A stretch of DNA of 32,000 nt from Halogeometricum borinquense DSM 11551. Its GTDB lineage: Archaea; Halobacteriota; Halobacteria; Halobacteriales; Haloferacaceae. Made by a program: the position numbers and the translations under genes. Positions within the stretch are counted from its first letter, which is position 1. Each line of letters begins with the position of its first letter. This document shows positions 8,552-28,974 of the stretch, one piece after another. The stretch covers positions 60,001 to 92,000 of the forward strand of contig NC_014735.1 in the NCBI RefSeq assembly GCF_000172995.2. The letters are read 5' to 3'. The notes under the pieces were generated by a model. It saw only the letters and a program-made list of their open reading frames with translations. It was not told the origin of the DNA and searched no databases.

Positions 8552-8774
8552 GCTCCCGACAAATACAGCCACCGTGAAAAATAGACAGGTCAAACAATTT
8601 GCAGTATATACGATGACACAATTTTTCGATAATCAATCAATAAGTGGTAGTCATCTCGCCTGTGATTCGAAGGCGGTTGTCAGCCATCGGACGGCGAGGC
8701 CGATTCTTACGAACTGGGAAGTTACATTCGTCTACTAAATGATCGCCCGATGACGTTCAGTTGTGGTGAGTTCA

Positions 8775-10376
8775 ATGAGCGACAATTCAGCAACTCAGTC
8801 AGTGGATCCGGCGGAACGTGACGCCTACTTCGTGGGTGGGGGAATCGCATCGCTCGCCGGAGCAGCCTTCCTCGTCCGTGACGCTGGTGTTCCCGGAGAG
8901 AACATCCATATTCTCGAAAAACTCGACGTGATGGGTGGTGCCCTCGACGGCAGTGGCACGCCGGAGGACGGGTACGTCATCCGTGGCGGTCGAATGTTCA
9001 ACTACCCGACCTACGAGTGTACTTGGGACCTGTTAGAGTCGGTTCCGTCACTCGAAGACCCCGACAGGTCGATCAAGGCCGTCATGGACGAGTTCAACGA
9101 GCGGTACGAGTCCTACGCCGAAACGAGGTTGATGGACGAAGAACAGGAGATTCTCGATGCCTCCTCGTACGACTTCGAGATGGAGCATCGACTGTCGCTG
9201 TTGCAGTTAGCGCTCACACCCGAACGGAAACTAGGTGATACGACGATTGAGGAGTGGTTCTCGGAGTCGTTCTTCGATACGACGTTCTGGTATCTGTGGG
9301 CCACGACGTTCGCGTTCCAACCGTGGCACAGCGTAGTCGAGATGCGGCGGTACATGCACCGCTTCATGCACGAGTTCCCCCGACTCGACACACTCGAAGG
9401 AGTTGATCGAACGAAGTACAACCAGTACGACTCCATCGTTCGCCCCCTCGTTCAATGGCTGAAAGAACGCGATGTCGAGTTCCGCGGTGGCTGTGAGGTG
9501 ACTGCTCTCGATATCACGTCCATGCGCGGAGGGAAGACGGTCGAGGCAATTCACTACGAATCCGACGAGACGCCGAACACGATTGATGTTGCACCAAGCG
9601 ACCTCGTGTTCGTCACGAACGGCTCGATGACCGACGGCTCCAGTCTCGGATCGATGGACGAAGCGCCAACGCTGGACACGACGGGTGCGTCATTCGAGTT
9701 GTGGAAATCCATTGTCGAAGACCATCCGGAGTTCGGCAACCCGTCGGCATTCGCGGATCACGTCCAAGAGACGAAGTGGGAGTCGTTCACCGTCACGCTC
9801 GACGAACCTGACCTGCTCGAATACATAATCGAGGTTACGAGAGAGGAGCCGGGGAACGGGTTGGTCACGTTCACCGACTCGAACTGGCTCATGTCTATCG
9901 TCGTCGCCGGTCAGCCGCACTTTGCGAACCAGCCCGAAGACGTGAAGGTGTTCTGGGGGTACGGTCTCTTCCCCGAAGCGAAGGGCAACTACATCGAAAA
10001 GCGCATGGAAGACTGCACTGGCGAGGAAATTCTCGAAGAACTCTGTTATCACCTCGGTTGCAGCGACCGGTCGTCGTCGTTCATCGAATCTGCGACGTGC
10101 ATCCCCTGCATGATGCCGTTCATCACGAGTCAGTTCATGCCGAGAACGCCCGGGGACCGACCAGACGTCGTTCCCGCGAGATCGAACAATCTCGCATTCC
10201 TCGGTCAGTTCGCCGAACTCCCCAACGATGTTGTATTCACCGTGGAATACTCGGTCCGTTCTGCGATGGTCGCCGTCTACGACCTCCTCGATATCGAGCG
10301 AGACGTTCCCAAGATAAGCGCCCATCAGTACGAACCTGAAGTGCTGATGGATGTTGCGCAAGCGTCGTTCAGATAA
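8775..10376 (+). CDS. oleate hydratase (MCRA family, FAD-dependent)
   Basis: N-terminal dinucleotide-binding motif YFVGGGIASLAGAAFLVRD, then GGALDG and GYVIRGGRMF, characteristic of MCRA/oleate hydratases. An alternative GTG start lies at 8763. Confidence 0.8.
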   Translation: MSDNSATQSVDPAERDAYFVGGGIASLAGAAFLVRDAGVPGENIHILEKLDVMGGALDGSGTPEDGYVIRGGRMFNYPTYECTWDLLESVPSLEDPDRSIKAVMDEFNERYESYAETRLMDEEQEILDASSYDFEMEHRLSLLQLALTPERKLGDTTIEEWFSESFFDTTFWYLWATTFAFQPWHSVVEMRRYMHRFMHEFPRLDTLEGVDRTKYNQYDSIVRPLVQWLKERDVEFRGGCEVTALDITSMRGGKTVEAIHYESDETPNTIDVAPSDLVFVTNGSMTDGSSLGSMDEAPTLDTTGASFELWKSIVEDHPEFGNPSAFADHVQETKWESFTVTLDEPDLLEYIIEVTREEPGNGLVTFTDSNWLMSIVVAGQPHFANQPEDVKVFWGYGLFPEAKGNYIEKRMEDCTGEEILEELCYHLGCSDRSSSFIESATCIPCMMPFITSQFMPRTPGDRPDVVPARSNNLAFLGQFAELPNDVVFTVEYSVRSAMVAVYDLLDIERDVPKISAHQYEPEVLMDVAQASFR

Positions 10377-15212: not shown

Positions 15213-17797
15213 CGTGATTCCTCCTCCAGAATGCAGTCTCGGTTATCCACGTACCGATAGTTCGGATCGCCGCCGAGTCCCCCAACTGGGAACCGTTCGT
15301 CACCGGCGCGGCGAGCGTTCAACTCTTCGAGTCGTTCTTGCACGAACTGTTCGAAGGCGTCTACATCGTCTGCGAAGTAGTTCTTGTTTCGAATCCGAAG
15401 CACGTGTCTGAGCGCCTGCTTACAGCCGTTTTTTACGTATTTGTAGTCACCGACGTTCTCCTTCATCCGCGCTGTCAGCGCGTGCCCGAACTCGGAGTCG
15501 ATGAGTTCGTCGCTATCACGCGTCTGTGGGAGTTCGTGCGTCTCGAAAATCGCACGATACTCCTCGTACTCCGTTTTCGAGAACGTCTTGTTGCAGTCGT
15601 TCGCGGCCTCCGATTTCAGTTCGTTGAAGACGGCCTCTGTCGCAACGTACTCCGCGAAGGTGTGCGGATAGTACGTCACCGTCGTCAGGCAGTCGTCCAG
15701 AGAGGCCTCACCAGCGACGATGTCATCAAGCGTTTCGAGGAAGTGAAAGAACGTGAATTGGAGTTCCTGGTCTGGCTGTACGGTACGCTGGTGAGCGAGG
15801 TACAGCAGTGCTTGGAAGTTTGGCTTGTCGCTCGGTGGGTCGAGCGCCGAATGTTTGACTATCGAGTGCGCAGACTTCTTCGACCCGCTCTTGTAGTCGA
15901 GAAGATGCGTCGAGTCGTGAACGAGGTCGATTTTGCCTTTCAGACCGAGGTCGCTGTTCTCGAACCACCGTTCCGTGTGGGGTGTGTCAATGGGGCGGTC
16001 GTAGTACTCGGCGAAGAAATTCCGTCCCCAGCCGTCGTTTCCGGCAACGAACTCGTCGCCGTGGGGTGGGTTCGTGTCCAAGAACTCGACGATAGTCTGG
16101 AGTCCGAGACGGTACTTGGTGTGTCGGACCTCCCGGTCAACCCCACGGAGGAATGGATCAACTTCATCGAGGATGATCTCCGCAACTTCAGCAAGCGTCT
16201 CGTCCGTGACAGACTCGGGATGAGCGACGTAATACTCCGCAAAGTCGTGAAGCAGATTTCCTTCCCTGAAGTAGTCCTTGTCCGGAGTATCGAGAAGTCG
16301 AGAGAAAAAGTAGTCTCGGGGTGAGTTGACGTAGGTGTTGAGGCTCGACTGGCTGATGGTCGTGACTTCAGCAGCAGCGATGTCGAGTGGTTCCTTCGCA
16401 AAGCCGTCCGCCGTCGTTCGAAACGCGCGTGAGTGTGGAACCGAATCGAGATCGCTGAATCGCTCGAAGGTCTCATCGAACAGTTCCTCGAAATACAGAC
16501 ACGGGGTCACGGGTGTCCCCCCGGCGGTATCCTGTACGAGGTAGTACTGGTCGATACCGTTCTGGAGGAGCAGTTGGAACTGCTGGATGTTGCGCTCGAA
16601 CTCCCGGTCGCGGTCAACCCACGGCCGCCGTGGGGGCGAGTGCGTCCACCCCTCGTCGAGACCGAGGTAAAACACGACAGGCCGGTCAACGTGAGCCGCT
16701 GACTTCGCATCTGCCAACAGCACACCCTCGTTTCCGTGATCGACGGGGATATCGTACGTCTGTACGTAGAATTCGAGTCGGTCAACTGCCTCCTCAGTAA
16801 CGGGGTCGGTCAAGAGACCAAGCGTGGAAAGTTCGTCACGGAACGCATCGAGAACGGTGTCCGCAGCGGATTCGTAAGCATCGAGGGCCGCACTGAACGT
16901 ACCGGTACGAACCTCGTCGTGGAGTTCGAGAAGCCAGTTGGCCGCTTGCTGGTCGCTGTCGTAAAGGCGCTTTTCGTCGTGTTCGATATCGATCGATTTT
17001 CCGAACCGGGTGAGCAACGGCCTAACGTCACTAATTCGGGTCTCCCGTCCGGCATGGGCACTACGGAGAAGTTGCAGAAACGTCCTGTGATGGGGTAGGT
17101 CGTCGAATCCGGGACCGCCGTGGTACGGAATCCCCGCCGCCTCGAATGCGGATTCGATGAGCGACGAGTACTGACTGGCAGCATCGAGGACGACACCGAC
17201 GTCATCGGCGTTTTCCTGAGTGACAGTATCGAGAACTGCATCGACAATCGCGGCCGGAGAGTCAAAGACACGGAACGGCGGGTAGTCGAACGTCTCATCG
17301 GCGAACGGATCGATTGTCTCGTAGTCGGGCGGGAGAATCGAACGTTCGAGTGCGGTAAGTTGCGTTAGTCCGACGACGGCAACTGACGTATCGGCATCGA
17401 TAGTGTACTCGGTGAGTCGGCGGAGGGTTGTGTCCGACTCACTGACGCAGTTAACGACTGTCCGCGTTGCTGCAGTGCGGAACAGTTCGTATTCGAGGAT
17501 TGACTCGGCCGTTCCTTGATACTCCCAGCATTGGTGGATGTTTCCGACCGCATGGGACGCCTCCTTCCAATCGAGGTCGGTCGATTCGATACTTTCGAGA
17601 AACGAAAGTCGGTACTCGTCCTGTTCGCGGCGTTGTGCAGCGAGGCGACGGGGCGTGATCGCAAACGGACCAAAGTGTGGTCGGTCGAGACGCCGATTGA
17701 GTGCGCTCGCCATCGGCGCGTCGGGCACGAGCACAAGGTCAAAGCCCTTGCATTCCTCGTAGAGGGCGTCGATAGATTTCGCTCGTGTGATTGGCAC
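15209..17797 (-). CDS. PD-(D/E)XK nuclease protein with a degenerate helicase-like body (AddB/RexB-like)
   Basis: 862 aa with a GTG start. Its stop overlaps the downstream helicase start (ATGA on the minus strand, 15209-15212). There is no Walker A. VLLADAKSAAHVDRPVVFYLGLDEGW resembles the AddB 2A-domain remnant. The C-terminal nuclease motifs are GKIDLVHD, LLDYKSG and FQALLYL. Confidence 0.75.
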   Translation of the reverse strand: MPITRAKSIDALYEECKGFDLVLVPDAPMASALNRRLDRPHFGPFAITPRRLAAQRREQDEYRLSFLESIESTDLDWKEASHAVGNIHQCWEYQGTAESILEYELFRTAATRTVVNCVSESDTTLRRLTEYTIDADTSVAVVGLTQLTALERSILPPDYETIDPFADETFDYPPFRVFDSPAAIVDAVLDTVTQENADDVGVVLDAASQYSSLIESAFEAAGIPYHGGPGFDDLPHHRTFLQLLRSAHAGRETRISDVRPLLTRFGKSIDIEHDEKRLYDSDQQAANWLLELHDEVRTGTFSAALDAYESAADTVLDAFRDELSTLGLLTDPVTEEAVDRLEFYVQTYDIPVDHGNEGVLLADAKSAAHVDRPVVFYLGLDEGWTHSPPRRPWVDRDREFERNIQQFQLLLQNGIDQYYLVQDTAGGTPVTPCLYFEELFDETFERFSDLDSVPHSRAFRTTADGFAKEPLDIAAAEVTTISQSSLNTYVNSPRDYFFSRLLDTPDKDYFREGNLLHDFAEYYVAHPESVTDETLAEVAEIILDEVDPFLRGVDREVRHTKYRLGLQTIVEFLDTNPPHGDEFVAGNDGWGRNFFAEYYDRPIDTPHTERWFENSDLGLKGKIDLVHDSTHLLDYKSGSKKSAHSIVKHSALDPPSDKPNFQALLYLAHQRTVQPDQELQFTFFHFLETLDDIVAGEASLDDCLTTVTYYPHTFAEYVATEAVFNELKSEAANDCNKTFSKTEYEEYRAIFETHELPQTRDSDELIDSEFGHALTARMKENVGDYKYVKNGCKQALRHVLRIRNKNYFADDVDAFEQFVQERLEELNARRAGDERFPVGGLGGDPNYRYVDNRDCILEEESR

Positions 17798-17828: not shown

Positions 17829-18116
17829 GTACCGTTGAGAGATATCTGAGAGGGGTGCAGTGGAGTGATAGAAAGGGAGTATGTAACCGGTATACGTAAG
17901 AGACACCAAATATAGAAACAAAAACAGGATATCGAGTGATATACGTAGTGTATTAAGAGAGTAGCACACAGATATATTGGTGAAATGTAGATAACTAGGA
18001 GGATATGAGATCTAAAAACAGTGTATTCACTAGCGGCATATTAAAATGTGAAAACAAACCAAAATATAAAAACAGATCGTATCGAAACCCAATCGAAACT
18101 GCTGTCAAACCGCTAT

Positions 18117-18503
18117 TCAGTCGTCTTTCCAGATTAGCCCATCGACCGTCCCGGTCAGGACAGGTTCACCATCTGCGTTCTCACAGACAACGTCTGCCGA
18201 GAATTCATAGCGATTGTCGCGTTCTACGACCGTATCGTACGTCGAGGTGCAGGTAACTGATTCGCCAGTGTAGACAGGTTGGTGAAACTCGAATTCCATA
18301 TTACTGGCCAACACCCCGTCGTCACCGCCAAGTTTCGTCGGCATCGTCGCCGTCAATAATCCTTGCACCATCACTCGGCCGTCCTCGTCAGGTTCGGTGT
18401 GTCGAGGCTGTGCGTCTCCAGAAAGTTCCGCAAACTGCTGGACCTCTTCGACGGTAAACGTTCGTTCGAACGTCTGTGTTTTGCCTTCAACTGGTGGATT
18501 CAT
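18117..18503 (-). CDS. MaoC-like (hotdog fold) dehydratase
   Basis: FTVEEVQQFAELSGDAQPRHTEPD...VMVQGLLTATMPTKLGG is typical of the MaoC dehydratase N-terminal region. The track start at 18515 is TTG, so the ATG at 18503 is preferred. Confidence 0.85.
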   Translation of the reverse strand: MNPPVEGKTQTFERTFTVEEVQQFAELSGDAQPRHTEPDEDGRVMVQGLLTATMPTKLGGDDGVLASNMEFEFHQPVYTGESVTCTSTYDTVVERDNRYEFSADVVCENADGEPVLTGTVDGLIWKDD

Positions 18504-18579
18504 ATGACTTCTCAATTACCAATGATAAATTAGTGAGGGATAAGCGTTAGGTATGAAATAGCAATCCTTCAGGTACGTG

Positions 18580-18592
18580 CTGGTTCGACCAG
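18580..18592. promoter_or_regulatory. 13-bp perfect palindrome in the divergent MaoC / nos-operon spacer
   Basis: ctggt-tcg-accag, about 80 bp upstream of the MaoC start. Confidence 0.2.
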
Positions 18593-18711
18593 CCGACTTA
18601 TTGCACACTCTACTCATTGCGCCGGAAGTAGCGACCATAAACGAGCGATTCACGGCAGCGTATACGCAATCAGACGGTAGCGTTTGAACGGAACTCGCAT
18701 CCTCCTTGTGG

Positions 18712-18723
18712 CGAACACGTTCG
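18712..18723. promoter_or_regulatory. CGAA-N4-TTCG inverted repeat upstream of the nos operon
   Basis: cgaacacgttcg lies 55-80 nt upstream of the candidate starts (18778, 18793, 18802) of the first operon gene, just upstream of a weak TATA-like tagtgtatg (around 18756-18764). Confidence 0.25.
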
Positions 18724-18777
18724 GACCGGTTCCCGAGTGGTGAAGAACGTCCAACTAGTGTATGGTTGGGGTCGGGT

Positions 18778-19185
18778 ATGACCGTACATGGGATGATACC
18801 CATGGACTGGAACCGCCTCGGACCACGTGAAAAGGAACTGTTAGCAATCCTGCGACGGAGCGAACAGTCCTTGACTTCGCGGGAAGTCCAGCGTGAACTC
18901 CGAGAAGACGGCGTCGATGTCGTGTACTCGACAGTGAGTGCGACACTCGACCGCCTCGTCGAGAAGCGGTTAGTGGACCGAACCGAGGAGATGCAGCGTG
19001 GATCACCTCGATACCGACACACCTTCGCGGCCGACCAGTACGCCGGTGAACTCCTCGATTCGATCGTCGAGGACGTATCCGAAGTCCTCGGTACTGACGG
19101 CCTGACTGGACTGGTGCGAAGGGCCGAGGCGATGGGCGGGGATGAGCAATCGAACGAACACAACCCTACAAATACGAAAGCATGA
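18778..19185 (+). CDS. BlaI/MecI/CopY-family winged-helix transcriptional regulator
   Basis: LGPREKELLAILRRSEQSLTSREVQRELREDGVDVVYSTVSATLDRLVEKRLVDRTEE..GSPRYRHTF fits the Penicillinase_R pattern (..YSTV.T.L.RL..K.L..R....G....Y). It lacks the C-terminal CxCxxxxCxC of CopY. The start is ambiguous (ATG 18778, 18793 or 18802). The stop overlaps the halocyanin start (ATGA at 19182-19185). Confidence 0.7.
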   Translation: MTVHGMIPMDWNRLGPREKELLAILRRSEQSLTSREVQRELREDGVDVVYSTVSATLDRLVEKRLVDRTEEMQRGSPRYRHTFAADQYAGELLDSIVEDVSEVLGTDGLTGLVRRAEAMGGDEQSNEHNPTNTKA

Positions 19186-19697
19186 CAACGAAACTCGATA
19201 GGCGGAAGTTGATGAAGCAAATTGGAATCACTGGGACCGTAGCGCTGCTGGGTGGCGTCGCCGGATGTACCAGTAGCGCTGACTCAAGCGGTGATGGGGG
19301 TGCGGAGACTGAGGCGAAGACCGCGACATCCAAACCGAAGGACAGCTCGTCGGACGGTGAAAAGTGGACGAAAACCGACACCGTCGATATGAACGATGAA
19401 CTGAAATTCGCACCGAAGCGCATCAAAGTGGAGTCAGGAACGACTGTCACGTGGAAGAACGTCGGTGCAGTCGGCCACACCGTCACCGCCTATGAGGACG
19501 AGATACCCGACGGCGCGACGTACTTCGCGTCGGGTGGATTCGACTCCGAGAAAGCGGCGAAAGACGGCTATCCCGACAAGGGGAACGTGACAGAAGGAGG
19601 CACCTACGAGCACACGTTCGAGACCAAGGGAACGTACAAGTACTACTGTGTACCGCACGAGATGAACGCAATGGTCGGATACGTCAAGGTTATTTAA
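19182..19697 (+). CDS. halocyanin / plastocyanin-like type-1 blue copper protein, Tat lipoprotein
   Basis: Signal RRKLMKQIGITGTVALLGGVAGC (twin-Arg plus lipobox). Type-1 Cu ligands are GAVGHTV and YYCVPHEMNAMVG (C-x2-H-x4-M). Confidence 0.9.
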   Translation: MTTKLDRRKLMKQIGITGTVALLGGVAGCTSSADSSGDGGAETEAKTATSKPKDSSSDGEKWTKTDTVDMNDELKFAPKRIKVESGTTVTWKNVGAVGHTVTAYEDEIPDGATYFASGGFDSEKAAKDGYPDKGNVTEGGTYEHTFETKGTYKYYCVPHEMNAMVGYVKVI

Positions 19698-19698
19698 A

Positions 19699-21717
19699 AT
19701 GAGTTCACACGACACATCGGAGGGGGAGGAGACCGACACCAAAACAGAGCGTAGCGCAGAGACATTACTATCGGAACACGAGGCGCAGTTGAATGCGCTT
19801 ATTGCAGACGTACAGGGGCCGGACGCGGACCCAGTAGAGACGCAACTTCCGAATCTCGGTCTTGGTCTCGGTCGCCGGGACTTCATGAAAGCGGGGGCAG
19901 CCGTCGGGGTTCTGGGCTCCGTCGCCGGGTGTGCAGGGCAGGGCGACAGCCAGGGTGGTACAGCCACGCCGTCTTCGAGTCACGGCGATGTGCCCGACCA
20001 CTTCGTTCCGCCGGGCGAACACGACAAGTACTACGGCTTCTGGAGTGGCGGTCACTCCGGCGAAGTGAGAGTAATGGGAATTCCGTCGATGCGGGAACTC
20101 ACGCGAATCCCCGTGTTCAACAGGGAGTGCGCGAAGGGATACGGTTTCGACGACGGAACGGGGGAGATGCTTAAAGACGCAGGCGACTACACGTGGGGTG
20201 ACTCTCACCACCCGAGCTTATCCGAGACCGATGGGAAGTACGACGGCGAGTACCTATTCGTCAACGACAAAGCCAACGGCCGCGTCGCACGGGTGAATCT
20301 GAAGTACTTCGAGACGGATGCGATTCTGGACGTGCCGAACGTCCAGTCAGTCCACGGATGCTGCATTCAGAGCCCCGACACCGAGTACGTCTTCGCCAAC
20401 GGTGAGTTCCGTGCGCCGCTTCCAAACGACGGGCGCGACGTAGACGACCCGTCGAAGTACGTCTCGCTGTTTTCGGCCATCGACCCCGAAAGCATGGACG
20501 TACTCTGGCAGGTGAAAGTCAGCGGCAACCTCGACATCGCCGACTCCGACAAAGACGGCCGGTGGCTGCTCTCGTCGTCGTACAACGACGAAGAGGGGGT
20601 CGAAATCGAGGAGATGACCCGCGACGACCGCGACTCGGTGAAGGCGTTCGACGTACCAGCCATTCAGAAAGCGGTTGATGCCGGGAAGTACGAGGAGGTC
20701 AACGGCGTCCCCGTCGTCGATGGGACCCGTGAAAGTTCACTCAACAAGGGCGATAACCCACTCGTCCGCTACATCCCGACGCCGAAATCACCCCACTGCG
20801 TTGAGGTGACGCCGGACGGAAAGTACGGCATCGTCGCCGGAAAGCTCTCTCCGACCGTCTCGATCATCGATATCGAGAAACTCGGAACCGAACCCGACCC
20901 GGCGAAGACGATTGTCGGCCAGCCCAAACTCGGTCTCGGTCCACTGCACACTACGTACGACGACCGCGGTCACGGGTACACCTCGCTGTTCATCGACTCG
21001 CAGGTCGTCAAGTGGGATATCGAAAAGGCAGTGGAGTCACCAAAAGGCTCCGAGGAGGCCATTCTCGGGAAGATAGACGTCCACTACAACCCAGGACACA
21101 TCCAAGCGGTACAGGCAATGTCCGTCGAACCGACCGGCGATTGGCTCGTCGTCCTCAACAAACTGTCGAAGGACCGGTTCCTCCCAGTCGGACCGATTCA
21201 CCCCGACAACGACCAACTCATCTACATCGGAAACGACAAAGACAACGAAACCGGTGGAATGGAACTGGTTTCCGATCACCCCGTCTATCCCGAACCGCAC
21301 GACGCCATCATGGTCCACAAAGACAAGTTGGACCCGGCGAAGATATGGGATGCCAAGGACTACGAGGGAGAACGGGAGTACATCTCCGAGAAGAACTCGG
21401 GAATCGAACGCCTCGACGACTCGACCGTCGAGGTGAACATGAGTTCCAAGCGGAGCGAGTTCGGCCTCCGTGAATTCACGGTGAAAGAAGGCGACGAAGT
21501 GCAGATGACCGTGACGAACATCGAGAAGAGTCCGGACATCATCCACGGAGTTGCCATCCCCGAACACGACATCAACCTCGCGCTCGCCCCACAGGACACT
21601 CGGGAAGTAACGTTCGCCGCGGATGATCCCGGCGTCTACTGGATCTACTGCACGTACTTCTGTAGCGCACTGCACCTAGAGATGCGCTCGCGGATGATCG
21701 TCGAACCACGGGACTGA
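19699..21717 (+). CDS. nosZ: nitrous-oxide reductase
   Basis: 672 aa. Tat motif GRRDFMKAG (RR at residues 59-60) and lipobox VAGC (Cys78). CuZ-region WGDSHHPSLSETDGKYDGEYLFVNDKANGRVARV. CuA loop CTYFCSALHLEM (21649-21684). The gene starts 1 nt after the halocyanin stop. Confidence 0.97.
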   Translation: MSSHDTSEGEETDTKTERSAETLLSEHEAQLNALIADVQGPDADPVETQLPNLGLGLGRRDFMKAGAAVGVLGSVAGCAGQGDSQGGTATPSSSHGDVPDHFVPPGEHDKYYGFWSGGHSGEVRVMGIPSMRELTRIPVFNRECAKGYGFDDGTGEMLKDAGDYTWGDSHHPSLSETDGKYDGEYLFVNDKANGRVARVNLKYFETDAILDVPNVQSVHGCCIQSPDTEYVFANGEFRAPLPNDGRDVDDPSKYVSLFSAIDPESMDVLWQVKVSGNLDIADSDKDGRWLLSSSYNDEEGVEIEEMTRDDRDSVKAFDVPAIQKAVDAGKYEEVNGVPVVDGTRESSLNKGDNPLVRYIPTPKSPHCVEVTPDGKYGIVAGKLSPTVSIIDIEKLGTEPDPAKTIVGQPKLGLGPLHTTYDDRGHGYTSLFIDSQVVKWDIEKAVESPKGSEEAILGKIDVHYNPGHIQAVQAMSVEPTGDWLVVLNKLSKDRFLPVGPIHPDNDQLIYIGNDKDNETGGMELVSDHPVYPEPHDAIMVHKDKLDPAKIWDAKDYEGEREYISEKNSGIERLDDSTVEVNMSSKRSEFGLREFTVKEGDEVQMTVTNIEKSPDIIHGVAIPEHDINLALAPQDTREVTFAADDPGVYWIYCTYFCSALHLEMRSRMIVEPRD

Positions 21718-21723
21718 ACCATC

Positions 21724-22488
21724 ATGAATCTGCCAGGACGAACCGAGTTCGCCCAACTCCGCCGGTTGCTTCCGGTGGGAGCGGCAGTGCTGCTGCTCGG
21801 TGCACTGTTACTCCCGATGTGGTCCATCGAGATGCACGCCGTGCAGTATCCGAACGAACCGCTCCACCTCAGCCTGTACGCCTACCCACAGGTCAGCGGC
21901 GACTTCGTCGAGATCCATCGGCTGAACAAATACATCGGGTTCTACTATCCGGATCCTGTGTTCTGGCAGCCGAACTACGAACCGCACCCGCGGGCGATAG
22001 ACGTTCCGGAGTGGTCGCTCGGGCCACTAGCGTTCGTCGGGGTGGCTGCAACGAGTGTGTTCGTTGCGCTCGCGCCGACCGCCCGGAAACTCCGGCGTGG
22101 CCTCACACTCCAACTTGTCGGGGCCGTCGCGGTGTTCGCCGGTCTGCTGGCAGACATCCAGTTCCGACTGTATCAGGCAGGCCACACGCTGGATCCGGAT
22201 GCGCCTGTCATGGGCGTTGAGGGGTTCACACCGCCGCTTTTGGGAACCTATTCGGTTGCCAATATCACGAGTTACTCGCGGTTCGGTGCCGGTGCCTACC
22301 TGACGATGCTTGCTATCGGACTGCTGGTGGTTAGCTACGCGGTCCGCAATTCGACGGTCACGCTGTGGGAGGTCCCGGGATACGCCCGGAACCGATTCAC
22401 GGGCGACGACGAGACGACGGAACCGACAACCGGGACGACAAGCGAGCGAGCGTCCGCTCCGGACGCCTCCCGAACGGGGCGGCGGTAA
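21724..22488 (+). CDS. 4-TM integral membrane protein of unknown function, in the position nosB occupies in clade II clusters
   Basis: 254 aa with four hydrophobic helices (LLPVGAAVLLLGALLLPMW, LGPLAFVGVAATSVFVALAP, LQLVGAVAVFAGLLADI, AYLTMLAIGLLVVSYAV) and a large first extracytoplasmic loop. It starts 6 nt after the nosZ stop and ends 2 nt before the nosD start. Confidence 0.7.
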   Translation: MNLPGRTEFAQLRRLLPVGAAVLLLGALLLPMWSIEMHAVQYPNEPLHLSLYAYPQVSGDFVEIHRLNKYIGFYYPDPVFWQPNYEPHPRAIDVPEWSLGPLAFVGVAATSVFVALAPTARKLRRGLTLQLVGAVAVFAGLLADIQFRLYQAGHTLDPDAPVMGVEGFTPPLLGTYSVANITSYSRFGAGAYLTMLAIGLLVVSYAVRNSTVTLWEVPGYARNRFTGDDETTEPTTGTTSERASAPDASRTGRR

Positions 22489-22490
22489 CG

Positions 22491-23873
22491 ATGCCGTCTG
22501 TATCGGCCGAACGAGCGTTCGCCCTCTTCGCGGTCGTCGTTCTCCTCGGCACGACACTCTCAGCGCTGACGGTTCCGACGGCCGCAGGAGCGGATGACAG
22601 CCTCGCCTTCGAACCCGGTGTTCCGGAAGAGTACGCCTTCGACGCACCGACCGAAACGGGAACGGCGACCGTCGGCGGCGACTCCTACGAGTCGGTACAA
22701 GCGGCCGTCGATGCGGCCACGCCCGGAGACACCGTCCACATACGGGGGTCCTTCTCCGAGCGTGTTATCATCTCGACGCCGAACATCACACTCGAAAGCG
22801 CACCCGGTCGGTTGGCCCGTATCGACGGCGATGAGACGGAAGATGCACTCACGATAGACGCCGACGGCGTTACTGTCCGCCGAATCTGGATTCACAACTC
22901 CGGACGCGACACCGGAAGTAACGACGCCGGCATCTGGGTCAACGGCACGGACGCGCGCATACTCGACAGTCGTCTGACTGACGTCACCTTCGGTATCTGG
23001 GTGAACGGCGTTGACGACGTACTTCTGCGGAACAACACGATTGTCGGCCGCGAAGCGGTCCGGCCGTTATCCTATCGAGGAAACGGCATCCAACTCTGGA
23101 AAACGACAGATACCCGCGTCGTCGAAAACCGCATCACCGACGTTCGAGACGGGTTGTACTACTCGTGGGCGTCGAACGTAACCGCACGGGAGAACACGAT
23201 GTGGGAACTTCGATACGGCGTCCACTACATGTACTCGGACGACTGCCGGTTACAGAACAACACCTCGTTCGATAACGACGTCGGCTACGCGCTCATGCTC
23301 TCAGAGCACATTGAGGTCGTAGATAACGTCGCCGTGAACAACACCGGCGTGAGCGGACACGGGATTCTCCTCAAGCGGATCGACGACTCCGTCGTTCGGG
23401 GGAATCACTTCGTCGGCAACGACCGGGGCATCTACGTGCTGAACTCGGTCCGAAACGTGATGGCAAACAACCTCGTCATGGAGAACGGCATCGGCGTCCA
23501 TCTCACCGCCGGAACCGAAGACGAACGCGTCTTCGGGAATAGCTTCGTCAATAACGACCGGTCAGTGTTCGCGGTCACCGGCGAGTTGGCCGTCTGGAAC
23601 GCGTCCGAACGAGGTAACTACTGGTCGTCCGCCGACGCCGCCGACATCGACAACGACGGCATCAGCGACGTTCGCTACCGGCCGTCTGGACTGGTAGAGC
23701 ATCTGATCTACGAGCATCCACAGGCGGCGGTGTTCGCAGACAGCCCCGCATTCGACGCCATCCGCTTGGCTGAGAGTTCCTTCCCGGTCATCGAATCACC
23801 GGGAGTTGTCGATCACCACCCGCTCACGACACCACCACACAGCGACTGGAGACGATACTATGAACGCAATTGA
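22491..23873 (+). CDS. nosD: copper-enzyme maturation beta-helix protein NosD
   Basis: Signal MPSVSAERAFALFAVVVLLGTTLSALTVPTAAG, then many parallel beta-helix repeat units (N-x-I/V-x-x-N: LRNNTIVG, VENRITD, ARENTMW, LQNNTSF, VVDNVAVNN, VRGNHFVGN, MANNLVMEN, FGNSFVNN). The ATG at 22491 is preferred over the track start at 22365. Confidence 0.9.
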   Translation: MPSVSAERAFALFAVVVLLGTTLSALTVPTAAGADDSLAFEPGVPEEYAFDAPTETGTATVGGDSYESVQAAVDAATPGDTVHIRGSFSERVIISTPNITLESAPGRLARIDGDETEDALTIDADGVTVRRIWIHNSGRDTGSNDAGIWVNGTDARILDSRLTDVTFGIWVNGVDDVLLRNNTIVGREAVRPLSYRGNGIQLWKTTDTRVVENRITDVRDGLYYSWASNVTARENTMWELRYGVHYMYSDDCRLQNNTSFDNDVGYALMLSEHIEVVDNVAVNNTGVSGHGILLKRIDDSVVRGNHFVGNDRGIYVLNSVRNVMANNLVMENGIGVHLTAGTEDERVFGNSFVNNDRSVFAVTGELAVWNASERGNYWSSADAADIDNDGISDVRYRPSGLVEHLIYEHPQAAVFADSPAFDAIRLAESSFPVIESPGVVDHHPLTTPPHSDWRRYYERN

Positions 23874-24828
23874 CGTAACCGACGTAACGCAAACCTACGG
23901 CGACGTGACGGCTCTCGACGGCCTGTCACTATCCATCGAACCGGGGACTACCTTCGGTCTGCTCGGTACGAACGGTGCAGGAAAGTCTACGCTGTTCAAA
24001 CTGGTCGTCGGGCACGTCCGACCCGACACCGGCACGGTTTCGGTCGCCGGGCAGAACGTTGAGACAGCAGGCCCGGCCATCCGTAGCGAAGTCGGATACC
24101 TGCCCGAACACGCCGGATTCCCACCAGCGCTTACCGGCCGGGAGGTACTCGAATTTCACGCGAAGATGCGCGGGCTCGACGACGCGGACGACCGCATCGA
24201 AAGCGTTCTCAGTCTCGTCGGACTGCGTGACGCCGCCGACCGGCGAACCGGCGGGTACTCGAACGGAATGAATCGCCGTCTCGGATTGGCGACAGCGCTG
24301 CTTTCCCGACCGACGATTCTCCTGCTGGATGAACCCACTGCAGGCCTCGATCCACGAGGAGTCGCCGCGTTCCACGACGTCGTCGAACGACTAGCGCGGG
24401 ACGACGACCTCACGGTCGTCCTCTCCTCGCACGTGCTCTCGGAGGTCGAAAAGTTGTGTGATACGGTCGGCATCGTTCACAACGGGCGACTGCGTGCTGG
24501 CGGGTCGGTCGAAGCGTTGAAGCGAGACCTGATCGACGGCGTCCGAGTCCGCGTCCGTCTGGCCGACGCGGGGTCAATGGCCGACGCGACTTCAGTAGTC
24601 GATGAACACGACGGAGCCATTCGGTCCCAATCTAACCGCGAGTTCACCGTCGAATGCTCGTCGGAAGTCCCCCCCGGCCTGTTAGACGACCTGATGGACG
24701 CCGCGTCGCTGTCGGGGTACGAGGTTACCGAGCCGGGCCTCGAACAGGTCTTCGAGCACACTCTTGGCGGCGCGTCGAAGAAAGAGCAGGGAGAAGACGC
24801 GGAAGAGCAGGAGAGGGAGAAAACATGA
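23860..24828 (+). CDS. nosF: ABC ATPase NosF
   Basis: Walker A GTNGAGKST, signature YSNGMNRRLGLA, Walker B ILLLDEPTAGLD, H-loop SSHVL. Overlaps the nosD end by 14 nt. Acidic C-terminal tail KKEQGEDAEEQEREKT. Confidence 0.9.
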   Translation: MNAIDVTDVTQTYGDVTALDGLSLSIEPGTTFGLLGTNGAGKSTLFKLVVGHVRPDTGTVSVAGQNVETAGPAIRSEVGYLPEHAGFPPALTGREVLEFHAKMRGLDDADDRIESVLSLVGLRDAADRRTGGYSNGMNRRLGLATALLSRPTILLLDEPTAGLDPRGVAAFHDVVERLARDDDLTVVLSSHVLSEVEKLCDTVGIVHNGRLRAGGSVEALKRDLIDGVRVRVRLADAGSMADATSVVDEHDGAIRSQSNREFTVECSSEVPPGLLDDLMDAASLSGYEVTEPGLEQVFEHTLGGASKKEQGEDAEEQEREKT

Positions 24829-25775
24829 CCGAAGGACCTAACAGAGCGGATTCCGGTCGAAGCCACGAGACAGACGGTGGGGTCACAACGACCGGAGACG
24901 CTAACGTGACAGAACCAACCGATGTAGCGGAAGCACCAGAAGTGACGGAATCAACCGACGGGCAGGATAGCAGTGCGCTCCGACAGATTGCCACGGTCGC
25001 GGGCATGGAGTTCCGACTCTCGGTTCGGAATCGCTGGGCGGTTGCGCTGGCCGCGCTATTCACCCTCTTTGCGTCGCTCATCGTCGGCTTCGGCGCGTCG
25101 AGTGTCGGCCCGGTACGGGCGGATGCGGTCATCGTGAGTATGGCCTCGTTGGCAACGTATCTGCTCCCCCTCGCTGCGCTGGTCTTCGGCTTCGATGCAG
25201 TCGTGGGGGCCGAGGAACGCGGCTGGCTTGACATCGTGTTTGCACTCCCTGTCTCGCGTGCGCGAGTCGTCGTCGGGTCGTACCTCGGACGGGCGGTCAC
25301 GCTCGTGGCCGCGACGAGCATCGGCTTCGGAATCGGCGGGATTCTGCTGTTTTCGGTGGCATCGAGCGCTAACACCGTGTTGTACGCGACGTTCCTGCTC
25401 GGTTCAGTTGCGCTGGGACTGGGGTTCCTCGCAGTCGGCGTGTTCGTCTCGTCGGTCGTCGGTGAGAAGACCCACGCACTGGGGGCCGCACTCCTCGTCT
25501 GGGTCTGGTTCGTGTTCGGACACGACCTGCTCGCACTCGGTCTCGTGGCCGGGTCAAAACTCCCACAGAGCGCGTTATCGGTGATGGTCCTCTCGAATCC
25601 GGTGAGCGTCTTCCGAGTGTTCGTCCTCTCGGGTATCGACTCGACCGGCGGCGGACTGGCGACCGTCGTAGGGGAATCCACGCTCTCGATGCCACTTCTC
25701 GCAGTCGCGGCGACCGTCTGGGTCGTTGTCCCCGTCGCCGCCGCGGCGCGTGCTGTGCGCCATCGGAGCCTCTAG
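24825..25775 (+). CDS. nosY: ABC-2 permease NosY
   Basis: ATGA overlap with the nosF stop (24825-24828). About 6 hydrophobic helices follow an acidic N-terminal extension of roughly 60 aa. An alternative internal start at MEFRLSV is possible. Confidence 0.85.
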   Translation: MTEGPNRADSGRSHETDGGVTTTGDANVTEPTDVAEAPEVTESTDGQDSSALRQIATVAGMEFRLSVRNRWAVALAALFTLFASLIVGFGASSVGPVRADAVIVSMASLATYLLPLAALVFGFDAVVGAEERGWLDIVFALPVSRARVVVGSYLGRAVTLVAATSIGFGIGGILLFSVASSANTVLYATFLLGSVALGLGFLAVGVFVSSVVGEKTHALGAALLVWVWFVFGHDLLALGLVAGSKLPQSALSVMVLSNPVSVFRVFVLSGIDSTGGGLATVVGESTLSMPLLAVAATVWVVVPVAAAARAVRHRSL

Positions 25776-25827
25776 CCCGCCGCCATCGCTTTCTACCTCG
25801 GTCATCGCTAAAATACCGAAAGCGAGT

Positions 25828-25905
25828 TCCTAAATGCCGGTGCTCCGGAGTCCTAAATGCCGGTTAGCAGCAGGCGTAAATAGCGGTAAGAAGCCGGTAA
25901 GAAGC
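25828..25905. repeat. two pairs of short direct repeats in the convergent nosY / repeat-gene spacer
   Basis: tcctaaatgccggt occurs at 25828-25841 and 25851-25864 (23-bp period). cggtaagaagc occurs in tandem at 25884-25894 and 25895-25905. Confidence 0.5.
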
Positions 25906-25939
25906 AGCCCAGAAAAGTGCGTCCCCGCGTGGAGACGGC

Positions 25940-27109
25940 TTAGTCGCTCTCGAAGTCAAGGTCGTCGTGCTCGACATCGAGGTCACCACCGTCGTGTTCG
26001 ATGTCGTGATCGTCGTCCTCGAACTCGGTTCTGTCGTCGTCGCTCTCGAAGTCGAAGTCGTCGGTCTCGACTTCGAGGCTGTCGCCGTCGTGCTCGATAT
26101 CGTGGTCGTCAGTTTCGACCTCGACGCGGCCGTCTCTGATCTCGATATCGATCCCGCCGGAGCCGTCGAACTCAAACTCGACGCGACCGTCGTCGCTGTC
26201 GAATTCGAGGTCGTCGCTTTCGACCTCGGCACGGTCGCCGTCACGTTCGATCTCGAAGTCGTCGCCTTCGACGTCAACGCGGTCGTCGTCGCTCTCGAAG
26301 TCGAGGTCGTCAGTTTCGACCTCCGCGCGGTCGTTATCCCGTTCCACCTCGATGTCGTCGAGTTCGATATCTACGTCGCGTCCACCGTCGAACACCACGT
26401 TACCGTTGTCATCAGTGTCGAGGGTGAACTCGAAGTCGCCGTCATCTCCCTCGACTTCGATGCGGTCGCCGTCGAATTCGACGTCGAAGTCGTCGCTCTC
26501 AAGATCGAGAGTCGATCCGTCGTACTCGAAGTCGAAGTCGTTCGTCTCGACCTCAATGTCACCATCGGCGTCGATCTCGACATCGAAGTCGTCAGTCTGG
26601 ATTTCGATCGTGTCGCCGTCGAATTCGATATCGAACTCGTCGCCCTCGATTTCGACCCTGTCGCCGTCGCTCTCGATGTCGAGGTTTTCGTTATCGCTCT
26701 CGACATCGTACTCGCCGTTTTTGCGTTCGATCTCGAAGTCATCACTGTCGACCTCGAGGTCGTTGCCGTTGTATTCGACATCGAGAGTGAGGCTGCCGCT
26801 ACGACCTTCGACCTCAATCTCGTTACCGTTAATCTCGACCTCGACGTCGTCACTCTCAAGGTCGATGCGGTCACCGTCTAGCTCGATATCGAAGTCGTCA
26901 CCCTCGATTTCGACGCGACCATCGGACCGAAACTCAATGTCGAAGTCGTCACCATCTAGCTCGACACGCTCATCACTAGTTTCCACATCGAAGTTGCTAG
27001 ACCGGTGGCTTGCTGCGACCGGTGCAACCATCACGGAGAGCACCATCACGAGTACCAGTATCGGTGCAAGTACTCTCGCTATGTTCCGCCGCCCGTATAT
27101 TTGAATCAT
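25940..27109 (-). CDS. secreted ultra-acidic tandem octapeptide-repeat protein, unknown family
   Basis: ATG start. Signal-like N-terminus MIQIYGRRNIARVLAPILVLVMVLSVMVAPVAAS. The remainder is about 40 units of a 5-residue alternating hydrophobic/acidic strand plus a 3-residue acidic turn (RVEIEGDD FDIEFDGD ...). The C-terminal units contain His. Confidence 0.75.
   Translation of the reverse strand: MIQIYGRRNIARVLAPILVLVMVLSVMVAPVAASHRSSNFDVETSDERVELDGDDFDIEFRSDGRVEIEGDDFDIELDGDRIDLESDDVEVEINGNEIEVEGRSGSLTLDVEYNGNDLEVDSDDFEIERKNGEYDVESDNENLDIESDGDRVEIEGDEFDIEFDGDTIEIQTDDFDVEIDADGDIEVETNDFDFEYDGSTLDLESDDFDVEFDGDRIEVEGDDGDFEFTLDTDDNGNVVFDGGRDVDIELDDIEVERDNDRAEVETDDLDFESDDDRVDVEGDDFEIERDGDRAEVESDDLEFDSDDGRVEFEFDGSGGIDIEIRDGRVEVETDDHDIEHDGDSLEVETDDFDFESDDDRTEFEDDDHDIEHDGGDLDVEHDDLDFESD
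25943..26998 (-). repeat. coding tandem repeat, roughly 24-bp unit / 48-bp super-unit
   Basis: Degenerate periodic GAC/GAG/GTC/TTC/ATC codon array (gtcgaagtcgtc-type words recur throughout). It keeps several frames open on both strands. Confidence 0.8.
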
Positions 27110-27352: not shown

Positions 27353-27949
27353 CTAGTCATCGAAATCGTCGTCGTCACGATCCGATTCGATGAGGATCCC
27401 GTTCGCGTCGTATACCCGGCGTACGTCGTCGCCGTCCTCGTCGTCTTTCTGGAACACCCGAAGCGTTCCGGTTTCGTCGTACCATCGCTCTCTCTCATCA
27501 CCGTCGTCGTCTTCGGTTCGCTGGAACCTGAGTGTCCCGTTCACGTCGTATATCCGTTCTTCCTCGTCGTCGTCTTCCTCTTCTTCTCGGTAGACCCGGA
27601 GTGTGCCGTTCCCGTCGTAGATCCACTCTTCTTCGTCGCCATCCTCCTCCTCTGTTCTACGGTAGCGCACTATCCCATTGCGGTCGAACTCCGTTCGCTC
27701 CTCGTCACCATCGTCATCAACTTCCTCGACGAATCCACCGTCGGGTCCGATACAGGACTCGAACTCCTCCCCGTCGGTAGTCTCATACTTGACGAATCGC
27801 CGGCATTTGTCGGTGGACCCGGCTCTATACTCGATGACGTCGTCAGGGCTATGAGTTGCCGTCGCGGCCTGTGGCAATACCGTGACCCCACCGACGAGAA
27901 CCCCAAGCGTACGGAGGCAGTCACGTCTAGTCGGGGAGAGATGACTCAT
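27353..27949 (-). CDS. Tat-exported acidic protein with five 23-24-aa YD-like repeats
   Basis: The internal ATG at 27949 gives MSHLSPTRRDCLRTLGVLVGGVTVLPQAATA (twin-Arg signal). Repeats: RTEFDRNGIVRYRRTEEEDGDEEE / WIYDGNGTLRVYREEEEDDDEEE / RIYDVNGTLRFQRTEDDDGDERE / RWYDETGTLRVFQKDDEDGDDVR / RVYDANGILIESDRDDDDFDD. Confidence 0.7.
   Translation of the reverse strand: MSHLSPTRRDCLRTLGVLVGGVTVLPQAATATHSPDDVIEYRAGSTDKCRRFVKYETTDGEEFESCIGPDGGFVEEVDDDGDEERTEFDRNGIVRYRRTEEEDGDEEEWIYDGNGTLRVYREEEEDDDEEERIYDVNGTLRFQRTEDDDGDERERWYDETGTLRVFQKDDEDGDDVRRVYDANGILIESDRDDDDFDD
27356..27697 (-). repeat. coding tandem repeat, roughly 69-72 bp unit, 5 copies
   Basis: DNA encoding residues 85-198 of the protein above. 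The periodic motif is Y-D-x-x-G-x-L-R plus a poly-D/E linker. Confidence 0.7.
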
Positions 27950-28974
27950 GATGGCGCACCCCCAGAATATCCGGGCGGGATCCAAGACGGCCACAAACGA
28001 GAGGCTTTCGGGATTACGTGACTGGGAACCTGTAGCTCGACGATCCGGCTCACGAGGTGGGGCATCGCGACAACAGTGACGATGCTGCTCGACAGTCTTG
28101 ATGTGAGTTTCATACAATATATTGTGCCCTTGTGTTTATATCTGTGCGCTAACTAACCAATAGTTACTTTCCACTTCGCCACGCAGTTAGGTTCGGCTCA
28201 GGTCGAAAAGGCAGTTTCACGGGAGAAACCTCGTGAAGTGAGGAGATTACCTCGATTAAGCGACTTCGCCATGACAGCAATAACGATGTAATACCATATC
28301 GAGTGAATCTCAACTGTACATCGTATATTCAGAGACGTCGGCCGAAAAAAGAAGAGAGTGAAGCCGTCCAGCGTCAGAAACCAAGATAAAGAAAGAGATC
28401 ATACGTAATGAATCCAGAATAGGAAATGGATTCCAGATACATTATCATTTCACGAGAGATATGTGCCTATGTATGATTTTCTTAACCTGAAATTTGAATA
28501 ACTCGACTGAGATGGCAAAAAACGAGTTCAGATGTTCGAGTCAGAAACTCTACGAAATAGAATGTAGCGAGTGAGATCGGCCGCATTCACACACTGGGCA
28601 GATCTTCGACCAGAAGCCCGCCTACCGCGCTTGTCAGTATCCAAGCCTATACGAACCAGTCCCCATTGACCGACAAATCGTTTGGTAGTCGGTTGGTCGG
28701 TGCCGTCAACGCAACCCATGTCAGAACAACCGGCGAGGGCGCTGACCGACCCACCGATGGTTACCGTGAGATATCGCCGCCTCGAAATCTTCGAGAAGGA
28801 GAGAATATATAATCCCGATTTGGGTCCAAGTCTTGTTAATTTATTCTGTGAAGCCGCAACCTGATCTCATACTTGGCCCTTTATTTATGTATAATTCACA
28901 ATACCACATGTATTTGGTCAATATATAAGTATTATTCAGATGTATAAATTCATATCAATGAAATCTGGGTTAGT

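Follow-up and report, generated by a model that had tools for sequence, protein, structure and literature searches.

Several described nos gene clusters bear on the locus considered here, a set of seven genes around nosZ, the gene for nitrous oxide (N2O) reductase, in a window of 32,000 nucleotides (nt) from Halogeometricum borinquense DSM 11551 (contig NC_014735.1, positions 60,001 to 92,000; coordinates below are those of the window). The cluster of Haloferax mediterranei, an archaeon that reduces N2O in vivo (PMC7188791), lies on the megaplasmid pHM300 beside nar (HFX_RS15890-15860) and encodes a cupredoxin ('pcy'), NosZ, a hypothetical protein, NosD, an ABC ATPase, an ABC permease and NosL. 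Proteobacterial clade I clusters have the form nosRZDFYL(X) (Pseudomonas stutzeri, Pseudomonas mandelii, Paracoccus) and a NosZ that depends on twin-arginine translocation (Tat). Clade II clusters, whose NosZ uses the general secretory (Sec) pathway, are exemplified by nosZBDGC1C2HFYL of Wolinella succinogenes. According to the passages of bioRxiv 10.1101/2024.01.15.574570 and PMC9697520 that cite Hein et al. 2017, deletion of nosB abolishes N2O respiration in W. succinogenes. It has been stated that nosB occurs exclusively in clade II clusters (PMC11096178); other published work already notes nosB in archaea. Within NosZ, clade I is marked by DxHHxH together with EPHD, and clade II by DxHH together with EPH (bioRxiv 10.1101/2024.01.15.574570), in agreement with the DxHHxH and DxHH discriminators given in an earlier note on this DNA.

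Here we consider it highly probable that the window holds the nos operon of H. borinquense, in a layout that is normal for haloarchaea and with the mode of action proposed below. Seven open reading frames (ORFs), all on the + strand between 18778 and 25775, encode a regulator, a cupredoxin, NosZ, a protein with four transmembrane (TM) segments that we assign as NosB, NosD, NosF and NosY (Table 1). When recomputed from the window, the junctions of this head-to-tail array were identical to those listed in the earlier note: a 4-nt ATGA overlap between the regulator and cupredoxin genes, gaps of 1 nt before nosZ, 6 nt between nosZ and nosB and 2 nt between nosB and nosD, a 14-nt overlap of nosD with nosF, and a 4-nt ATGA overlap of nosF with nosY. 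These overlaps, of the translational-coupling type, are kept in three assemblies, and none of the seven ORFs is disrupted. In two H. borinquense assemblies the starts called independently by NCBI are exactly those of the window ORFs. Both assemblies have the locus together with its flanking genes, in one case on the H. borinquense chromosome CP048739.1 (3.99 Mb), and the NosB protein of the window is 98% identical to G3I44_15665.

From the cupredoxin gene to nosY the order is that of H. mediterranei, with protein identities of 55-78%. Both clusters lack nosR, both NosZ proteins have the Tat/lipobox signal, the CuZ motif DSHHPS and the CuA loop CTYFCSALHLEM, and both clusters have a denitrification operator upstream. 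Unlike the window, H. mediterranei has nosL directly after nosY, lacks a BlaI-type regulator and has the operator before the cupredoxin gene, and its cluster is on a megaplasmid whereas the window locus is chromosomal.

Table 1. Features of the H. borinquense nos locus, with window coordinates and the evidence for each.
Feature	Coordinates	Strand	Evidence or remark
Semi-palindromic denitrification operator CGAACACGTTCG	18712..18723		1 mismatch to the H. mediterranei motif
BlaI/MecI/CopY-family winged-helix regulator, first gene	18778..19185	+	PF03965 Penicillinase_R, 46 bits (cut-off 22.6), residues 14-103
Plastocyanin-like type-1 copper protein ('halocyanin')	19182..19697	+	PF00127, 66.9 bits
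nosZ, Tat-exported lipoprotein N2O reductase, haloarchaeal branch of clade I	19699..21717	+	TIGR04244, 750.4 bits
NosZ Tat motif RRDFMK, residues 59-64	19873-19890	+	inside LGRRDFMKAGAAVG, residues 57-70
NosZ lipobox VAGC, residues 75-78	19921-19932	+	
NosZ CuZ motif DSHHPS, residue 168 on	20200-20217	+	
NosZ EPHD, residues 532-535	21292-21303	+	
NosZ CuA loop CTYFCSALHLEM	21649-21684	+	
nosB homologue, 4-TM protein, 254 amino acids	21724..22488	+	hhalign and BLASTP to reference NosB
nosD, extracytoplasmic beta-helix maturation protein, N-terminal signal/anchor	22491..23873	+	TIGR04247, 380.6 bits (cut-off 300); PF05048, 3.8e-50
nosF, ABC ATPase of NosDFY	23860..24828	+	PF00005 (ABC_tran), 6.3e-33; position conserved in all loci
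nosY, ABC-2 type permease of NosDFY	24825..25775	+	PF12679 (ABC2_membrane_2), 1.9e-19; position conserved in all loci

Gene order and NosZ across haloarchaea

The earlier note had singled out this cluster for combining hallmarks of clades I and II. Gene order was read by tblastn with the window proteins in 80 loci, all from Halobacteria, which a search of GTDB contigs (one genome per species) with a 4-TM protein profile had returned, and in three added megaplasmid loci (H. mediterranei, Halomicrobium salinisoli and Natronococcus occultus); denominators are the assessable loci. The order nosZ-nosB-nosD-nosF-nosY was found in 71 of the 80 loci, the other nine being cut by contig ends, and wherever a locus extends over both nosZ and nosD, nosB stands between them. 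The gene directly upstream of nosZ encodes a cupredoxin in 53/72 loci, mainly in Haloferacaceae, Haloarculaceae and Halobacteriaceae, and not in Natrialbaceae and Natronomonas. A nosL gene is part of the locus in 25 of 73 cases and missing from 48 (about two thirds), and NosR is encoded in none of the surveyed loci. The most common haloarchaeal form is cupredoxin-nosZ-nosB-nosDFY without nosR and nosL. Two features alone set the window locus apart: its first gene encodes a BlaI-type regulator, and no nosL is linked to it.

The score of the window NosZ against the Tat-type model TIGR04244 (Table 1) exceeds the cut-off of 625, and the 528.1 bits against the Sec-type model TIGR04246 fall below its cut-off, also 625. 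The Tat motif and lipobox that had been noticed in this protein are both there, although the Pfam TAT_signal match is weak (18 bits), and the DSHHPS motif, DxHH without a third histidine, was recovered at exactly the coordinates reported. All the CuZ and CuA ligand motifs are present. Identity to P. stutzeri NosZ is 49% (E 8e-184), and in the aligned CuZ column GDSHHPSLS of the window stands against GDCHHPHIS of P. stutzeri. We take H129 and H130 of the latter to be the CuZ ligands; the third histidine, H132 by alignment position, would therefore lie outside the ligand set. It is absent from 76/76 haloarchaeal NosZ proteins, in which DxHHP is followed by N, R, S, V, A, I or G. The same 76 proteins all have FCSALHLEM, 75 of them have EPHD, and nearly all haloarchaeal NosZ carry the Tat motif and lipobox.

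In a small neighbour-joining tree of 17 sequences, comprising the window NosZ, ten from other haloarchaea, two of clade I (Pseudomonas mandelii, Paracoccus aminovorans) and four of Sec type (Thermomicrobium roseum, Deinococcus ficus, Hymenobacter, Tunicatimonas), the haloarchaea were monophyletic and sister to proteobacterial clade I, and the split of haloarchaea plus clade I from clade II was recovered in 100 of 100 bootstraps. Identities agree, at 48-49% to the clade I references and 34-37% to those of clade II. The motifs are mixed. The haloarchaeal CuZ column, WGDxHHP(non-H)xS(E/Q)T, is clade II-like (T. roseum reads WGDTHHPALSET), as is the CuA loop FCSALH; EPHD is clade I-like, as against EPHY in the clade II references. 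A published analysis has classed haloarchaeal NosZ, including WP_163487366 of H. borinquense, as clade I with Tat signal and lipobox, and has noted that residues at the CuA electron-entry side resemble the clade II NosZ of Wolinella (PMC8301774).

With the clade II clusters of T. roseum, D. ficus, Hymenobacter and Tunicatimonas the window shares a NosB homologue after nosZ, the lack of nosR and nosX, DxHH without a third histidine and FCSALH. Unlike them, it has a NosZ that bears signals for Tat export and lipidation, is without a cytochrome c domain and groups with clade I; it has no neighbouring cytochrome c gene and no NosGH/C1C2, the probable donor being a cupredoxin. With proteobacterial clade I it shares Tat dependence, EPHD and the order and function of nosDFY. 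In contrast, clade I clusters have nosR upstream, nosL (and in Paracoccus also nosX) downstream and no NosB, and their NosZ has DxHHxH, WFCHA(L/M)HMEM and no lipobox, on each of which the window is the reverse. The mosaic that the earlier note described is thus real, but it is not unusual: the third histidine occurs in 0/76 haloarchaeal NosZ, the layout is standard in the lineage, and the mixture is common to every haloarchaeal nos cluster examined and already partly published. On the simplest reading, NosB, DxHH without the third histidine and FCSALH would be ancestral characters retained on an early branch of clade I. Surveys of N2O reducers that sort clades by Tat or Sec signal, by nosR or nosB, or by DxHHxH will obtain contradictory answers for haloarchaea.

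Roughly 57 residues precede the twin-arginine motif of the window NosZ (19699-19872). A published analysis suspected a wrong nosZ start in H. mediterranei. For the window, where the Tat motif begins at residue 59, a misannotated start was considered and dropped; an N-terminal motif, SE(H/Y)EA(Q/K)LN, is conserved in four other genera, including Haloferax, Halolamina and Halorussus. Because of this conservation the N-terminal stretch is probably translated.

NosB and its possible role

The protein encoded directly after nosZ has no match in Pfam or NCBIfam. Hydropathy gives four hydrophobic segments, seen as four long helices in an AlphaFold2 (AF2) model (predicted local distance difference test score, pLDDT, 75.6). 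That a membrane gene stands here in the position of nosB had been remarked on from the sequence, and homology bears the comparison out. A haloarchaeal profile aligned by hhalign with four Campylobacterota NosB sequences (taken from Text S1 of PMC11409646) at 97% probability and E 8.8e-11 over 164 columns. BLASTP matched the window protein to Sulfurimonas denitrificans NosB (E 4e-8 over 186 residues) and to the products of the genes after Sec-type nosZ in T. roseum (1e-10) and D. ficus (5e-12), the latter two at 29-30% identity. The NosB signature stretches LNHYIGM and YGHN (van Spanning 2011, as quoted in PMC9697520) correspond to LNKYIGF (residues 67-73) and AGHT (residues 152-155) in the window; across haloarchaea the L, N, Y and G and the GH pair are invariant and the remaining positions are substituted. 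By these sequence comparisons the gene is a true NosB homologue.

The family is large. In haloarchaea alone it has over 300 close members, every one named 'hypothetical', with a mean column identity of 65% and the invariant blocks PMW, QYP, AYP, LN-Y-GFYYPDPV, PEW, IQ-RL-Q-GH-LDP and F-PP, and a profile search of 1.84 billion representative proteins returned 631 relatives at E<=1e-3. With one bacterial relative as probe, nosB was located in T. roseum and D. ficus, where it has a Sec-dependent nosZ before it and nosD after it; in Hymenobacter and Tunicatimonas it directly follows a Sec-dependent nosZ, is itself followed by nosL and by a hypothetical gene respectively, and precedes nosD. Each of these four proteins is annotated 'hypothetical protein'. 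Two clade I clusters that we examined have nosR upstream, nosD directly after nosZ, and no NosB. NosB has no Pfam or NCBIfam model and goes as a 'hypothetical protein' in every genome examined. The firm assignment of this gene, together with the fusions described next, is the most useful by-product of the analysis.

Some NosB relatives are much longer than the window protein. Among the best 150 representatives, 25 have at least 520 amino acids, and NosD was present in 8/8 of the long relatives scanned, fused as NosB-NosD or NosB-NosD-NosF. These single polypeptides of 520-1150 amino acids, found in many bacteria, start with NosB and continue with NosD or with NosD and the NosF ATPase (P0122, P0129, P0142, P0149, P0154, P0162, P0182 and P0198, among others; also L091:6509-8860). 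In the literature consulted, the only NosB fusions mentioned are NosB-NosL, published in PMC9697520, and NosB-NosC2.

Three properties of the family bear on function. It has one invariant histidine, no invariant cysteine and no bis-histidine pattern in the helices, which makes a haem or Fe-S cofactor unlikely. The four-helix topology, the basic N-terminus and the basic loop between TM2 and TM3 would put the two conserved loops, which form a small beta-sheet in the model, on the external side of the membrane. Finally, the fusions to NosD, to NosD-NosF and to NosL tie NosB to the copper-insertion machinery, and for this reason we favour an assembly role, giving an even chance to the view that NosB is a membrane partner of the NosDFY assembly machine.

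A competing view is that NosB belongs to the route of electron delivery, as a quinol-side or docking module that replaces NosR, and is not an assembly factor. Campylobacterota reference sequences include fusions of NosB to the cytochrome c NosC2, the presence of NosB is anticorrelated with that of NosR, the Wolinella deletion loses N2O respiration, and an electron-transport role is assumed in the literature. We nevertheless think this view on the unlikely side: the residue pattern speaks against a haem or Fe-S cofactor, the conserved parts are predicted to be extracytoplasmic loops, and the fusions to NosD, NosD-NosF and NosL point to copper insertion.

The assembly role can be extended, tentatively and with some doubt on our part, to a broader proposal. 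NosB would serve the NosDFY machine for copper and sulfide insertion as a subunit in the membrane or as a docking partner, and would not carry electrons; haloarchaeal clusters, with a Tat-type NosZ and NosB, no NosR and often no NosL, would preserve an intermediate stage between the systems of clade II and those of proteobacterial clade I, and NosR/NosX would later have replaced NosB. If so, the widespread NosB-NosD and NosB-NosD-NosF fusions are Rosetta-stone evidence for NosB in the assembly machine. For work on the role of NosB, haloarchaea provide an uncluttered setting, with no cytochromes, NosGH or NosR and often no NosL, and one of them, H. mediterranei, is genetically tractable.

A Foldseek search of the PDB with the AF2 model of NosB returned only a claudin/TARP-like four-helix topology with an extracellular sheet, at template-modelling scores (TM-scores) of 0.3-0.5; no NosB-like structure was among the solved ones, and the search gave no functional hint. 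The annotated nosD of T. roseum encodes 783 amino acids, by length alone enough for a NosD-NosF fusion, and that cluster has no annotated separate ATPase gene.

Operator, regulator and probable electron donor

The denitrification promoters of H. mediterranei have in common the semi-palindrome CGAAYATDKTYG, and its mutation in the nos promoter lowers activity (PMC10062603). The operator of the window is intergenic; ATG 18778 follows it at a distance of 66 nt and ATG 18793 at 81 nt. The total number of such motifs in the window is not above chance; it is the position that counts. In most haloarchaeal nos loci the motif lies about 78-90 nt upstream of the first gene, usually that of the cupredoxin, and 81 nt is the spacing found before Haloferax cupredoxin genes. 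No copy precedes the cupredoxin gene of the window, where the sole copy near the cluster is upstream of the regulator.

The regulator has 135 amino acids, none of them cysteine, and a 99% identical protein is named BlaI/MecI/CopY family by NCBI. It is rare: only four relatives were found among 5.8 billion proteins at the sensitivity of the search tool, tblastn against the plasmids of PLSDB gave no match, and the 83 haloarchaeal nos loci gave one weak match. A metagenome contig (L089) has the same arrangement, with an ATGA overlap of regulator and cupredoxin genes and a regulator 75% identical to that of the window. On this contig a perfect CGAACATGTTCG stands 80 nt upstream of the regulator ATG, which aligns with ATG 18793. 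The gene that the earlier note placed at 18778 is therefore upheld, but its start is more likely ATG 18793 (MIPMDW...), to judge from this relative.

Because the position and spacing of the operator match those before first genes elsewhere, and because the metagenome contig has the same arrangement, we infer that the regulator gene came to lie between the operator/promoter and the cupredoxin gene by insertion, and that it shares a transcript with nos. The promoter with the operator would then probably drive a single regulator-cupredoxin-nosZ-nosB-nosD-nosF-nosY transcript. Alternatively, the regulator could be a separate transcription unit, the nos operon proper beginning at the cupredoxin gene as it does in other haloarchaea. 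The cupredoxin gene is indeed first in 53/72 loci and the regulator occurs in only a few relatives, but the sole nearby operator precedes the regulator at the usual first-gene spacing and none precedes the cupredoxin gene, the regulator and cupredoxin genes share an ATGA stop/start overlap, and the arrangement recurs, operator included, beside the 75% identical regulator. A separate unit is thus improbable, and co-transcription from the upstream promoter is preferred. A scan of 18000-26300 for sigma-70 promoters and intrinsic terminators, a type of scan unsuited to archaea, gave nothing above shuffled sequences.

A CopY-type copper sensor was ruled out for the regulator, which has no cysteine and hence no C-terminal CxCx4CxC metal site. 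Pfam matches of the window's large ORFs include no BlaR1/MecR1-type sensor protease. Beyond the rare regulator under a denitrification operator, the locus itself adds little to what is known.

The cupredoxin has the Tat motif DRRKLMK and the lipobox VAGC, and the ligand pattern G-H...C-x2-H-x4-M is seen in its sequence. The earlier label 'halocyanin' is acceptable only in a loose sense: a plastocyanin-like cupredoxin is confirmed, but the protein scores 47.5 bits against the halocyanin model TIGR03102 (cut-off 93.8) and 55 bits against the plastocyanin model (cut-off 87.85), and its closest solved relatives are plastocyanins. The claim that it is the only evident electron donor in the window holds. 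In H. mediterranei the cupredoxin encoded upstream of nosZ was co-enriched with NosZ in membrane micelles and proposed as its donor (PMC7754194). The cupredoxin of the window is the probable electron donor to CuA.

Completeness of the cluster and neighbouring genes

The lack of nosR, nosL, nosX and a NosGH-type module in the window, as given in the earlier note, held up in every search. A profile built from 109 haloarchaeal NosL sequences found nothing at E<=10 among the six-frame ORFs of the 32 kb, tblastn with NosR (CAA05521) found nothing at E<=1 in the window or in the 83 haloarchaeal loci, and the Pfam matches of the window's other large ORFs include no FMN_bind, ApbE/NosX, NosG/H-type Fe-S or cytochrome genes. 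A search for NosL homologues returned no protein labelled Halogeometricum, although its word index scored only 218 candidates and absence from the genome is not thereby established. PLSDB holds many unlinked haloarchaeal nosL genes, for example on plasmids of Haloarcula and Haloferax (Hfx. volcanii included), and none on a Halogeometricum plasmid.

The absence of NosL and NosR from the 32 kb could be taken to mean that the cluster is incomplete or decaying, and non-functional for want of NosL and NosR/NosX. The GTDB representative genome of H. borinquense had no match in the GTDB scan, though the window protein would rank first, and the cluster therefore seems strain-variable within the species. 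Decay is nevertheless very unlikely. The seven ORFs are intact with their coupling overlaps kept in three assemblies and every CuZ and CuA ligand motif in place; nosL is not linked in 48/73 haloarchaeal loci and nosR is missing from all; haloarchaeal NosL paralogues are frequently encoded away from the cluster; and H. mediterranei, likewise without NosR near its cluster, reduces N2O (PMC7188791).

For a complete operon we propose the following mode of action. Apo-NosZ and the cupredoxin, both with the appropriate signals, would be exported by Tat and lipid-anchored on the outer face of the membrane. NosDFY would deliver copper, and sulfide, for the NosZ centres, by homology to P. stutzeri, and NosB, with its conserved loops predicted to be on the same side as NosD and NosZ, would most likely be the membrane partner of this machine. 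Copper may reach NosD either directly or through an unlinked chaperone, there being no linked NosL. The cupredoxin, itself a lipoprotein, would receive electrons that a bc-type complex draws from the quinol pool and would pass them on to CuA and then CuZ, where N2O is reduced to N2, with no part for NosR or NosX; the co-purification in H. mediterranei supports this route.

Some points weigh against this picture of the operon. The NosZ tree is a distance tree with small sampling, inspection of the sequence between the operator and the start codon revealed no clear archaeal TATA box, and the published NosB-NosC2 fusions point to electron transfer instead of assembly.

A new hybrid architecture peculiar to this organism, for instance a clade I nosZ recombined with a clade II accessory set, is scarcely credible: the trait mosaic is real and nosB is held to be clade II-only in some recent papers (PMC11096178), but archaeal exceptions are already in the literature, the same mosaic occurs in every haloarchaeal locus examined, in at least four families, and NosZ and NosB identities fall together, a parallel that argues for vertical inheritance in the lineage and not for local recombination.

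Megablast of the operon against plasmids found only Haloferax clusters about 76% identical, so the locus is on no catalogued plasmid; many other haloarchaeal nos copies sit on megaplasmids. In one relative whose NosB is 79% identical (L087:4245-6390), a haloarchaeal tyrosine recombinase and a VapBC pair lie just upstream of the cupredoxin gene, which hints at mobility of the nos cluster. NosF has 322 amino acids in the window and 354 in strains wsp4 and GCA_040679015 (window 24700-24830 against L084:12137-13201), an in-frame difference of 96 nt that probably falls in the acidic C-terminal tail and leaves the nosF/nosY ATGA overlap in place. At 1634-3872 (+), a second pair of ABC-2 permease and ABC ATPase genes is followed by an overlapping ORF of 192 amino acids that has no family match and no match to the NosL profile; the ATPase is 42% identical to the window NosF by tblastn. 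In H. mediterranei, too, a further ABC pair is found, immediately behind the nos cluster.

Outside the nos unit, the large ORFs of the window have no connection with nos. They comprise ABC-2 transporter genes, EamA, Lrp, an HTH_10 regulator, an amidohydrolase, a cupin, MCRA/oleate hydratase, an MFS transporter, a UvrD/PD-(D/E)XK pair, MaoC, two acidic repeat proteins, a pterin dehydratase and an FAD-oxidase/CCG fusion. The match of the MCRA-family (oleate hydratase-like) protein at 8763-10376 (+) is very strong (PF06100, 717 bits). Directly upstream of the divergent neighbour of the nos unit, two large overlapping genes at 12369-17797 (-) encode a UvrD-type helicase of 947 amino acids with a C-terminal PD-(D/E)XK nuclease domain and a PD-(D/E)XK protein of 862 amino acids, an AddAB-like pair.

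On the other side, two genes for very acidic proteins on the - strand (25940-27109 and 27353-28117) converge on the end of nosY, neither protein having a meaningful Pfam match. The first, of 389 amino acids, has an N-terminal hydrophobic segment and repeats of about 16 residues of the type D-D-F-D-(I/V)-E, with a period of 48 nt by Tandem Repeats Finder; the second combines a Tat-like motif, TRRDCLRTLG, with E/D-rich repeats. Within the 164 nt that separate the nosY stop from the convergent acidic-repeat gene, a direct repeat, TCCTAAATGCCGGT, occurs at 25828-25841 and again at 25851-25864, the two copies 9 nt apart.

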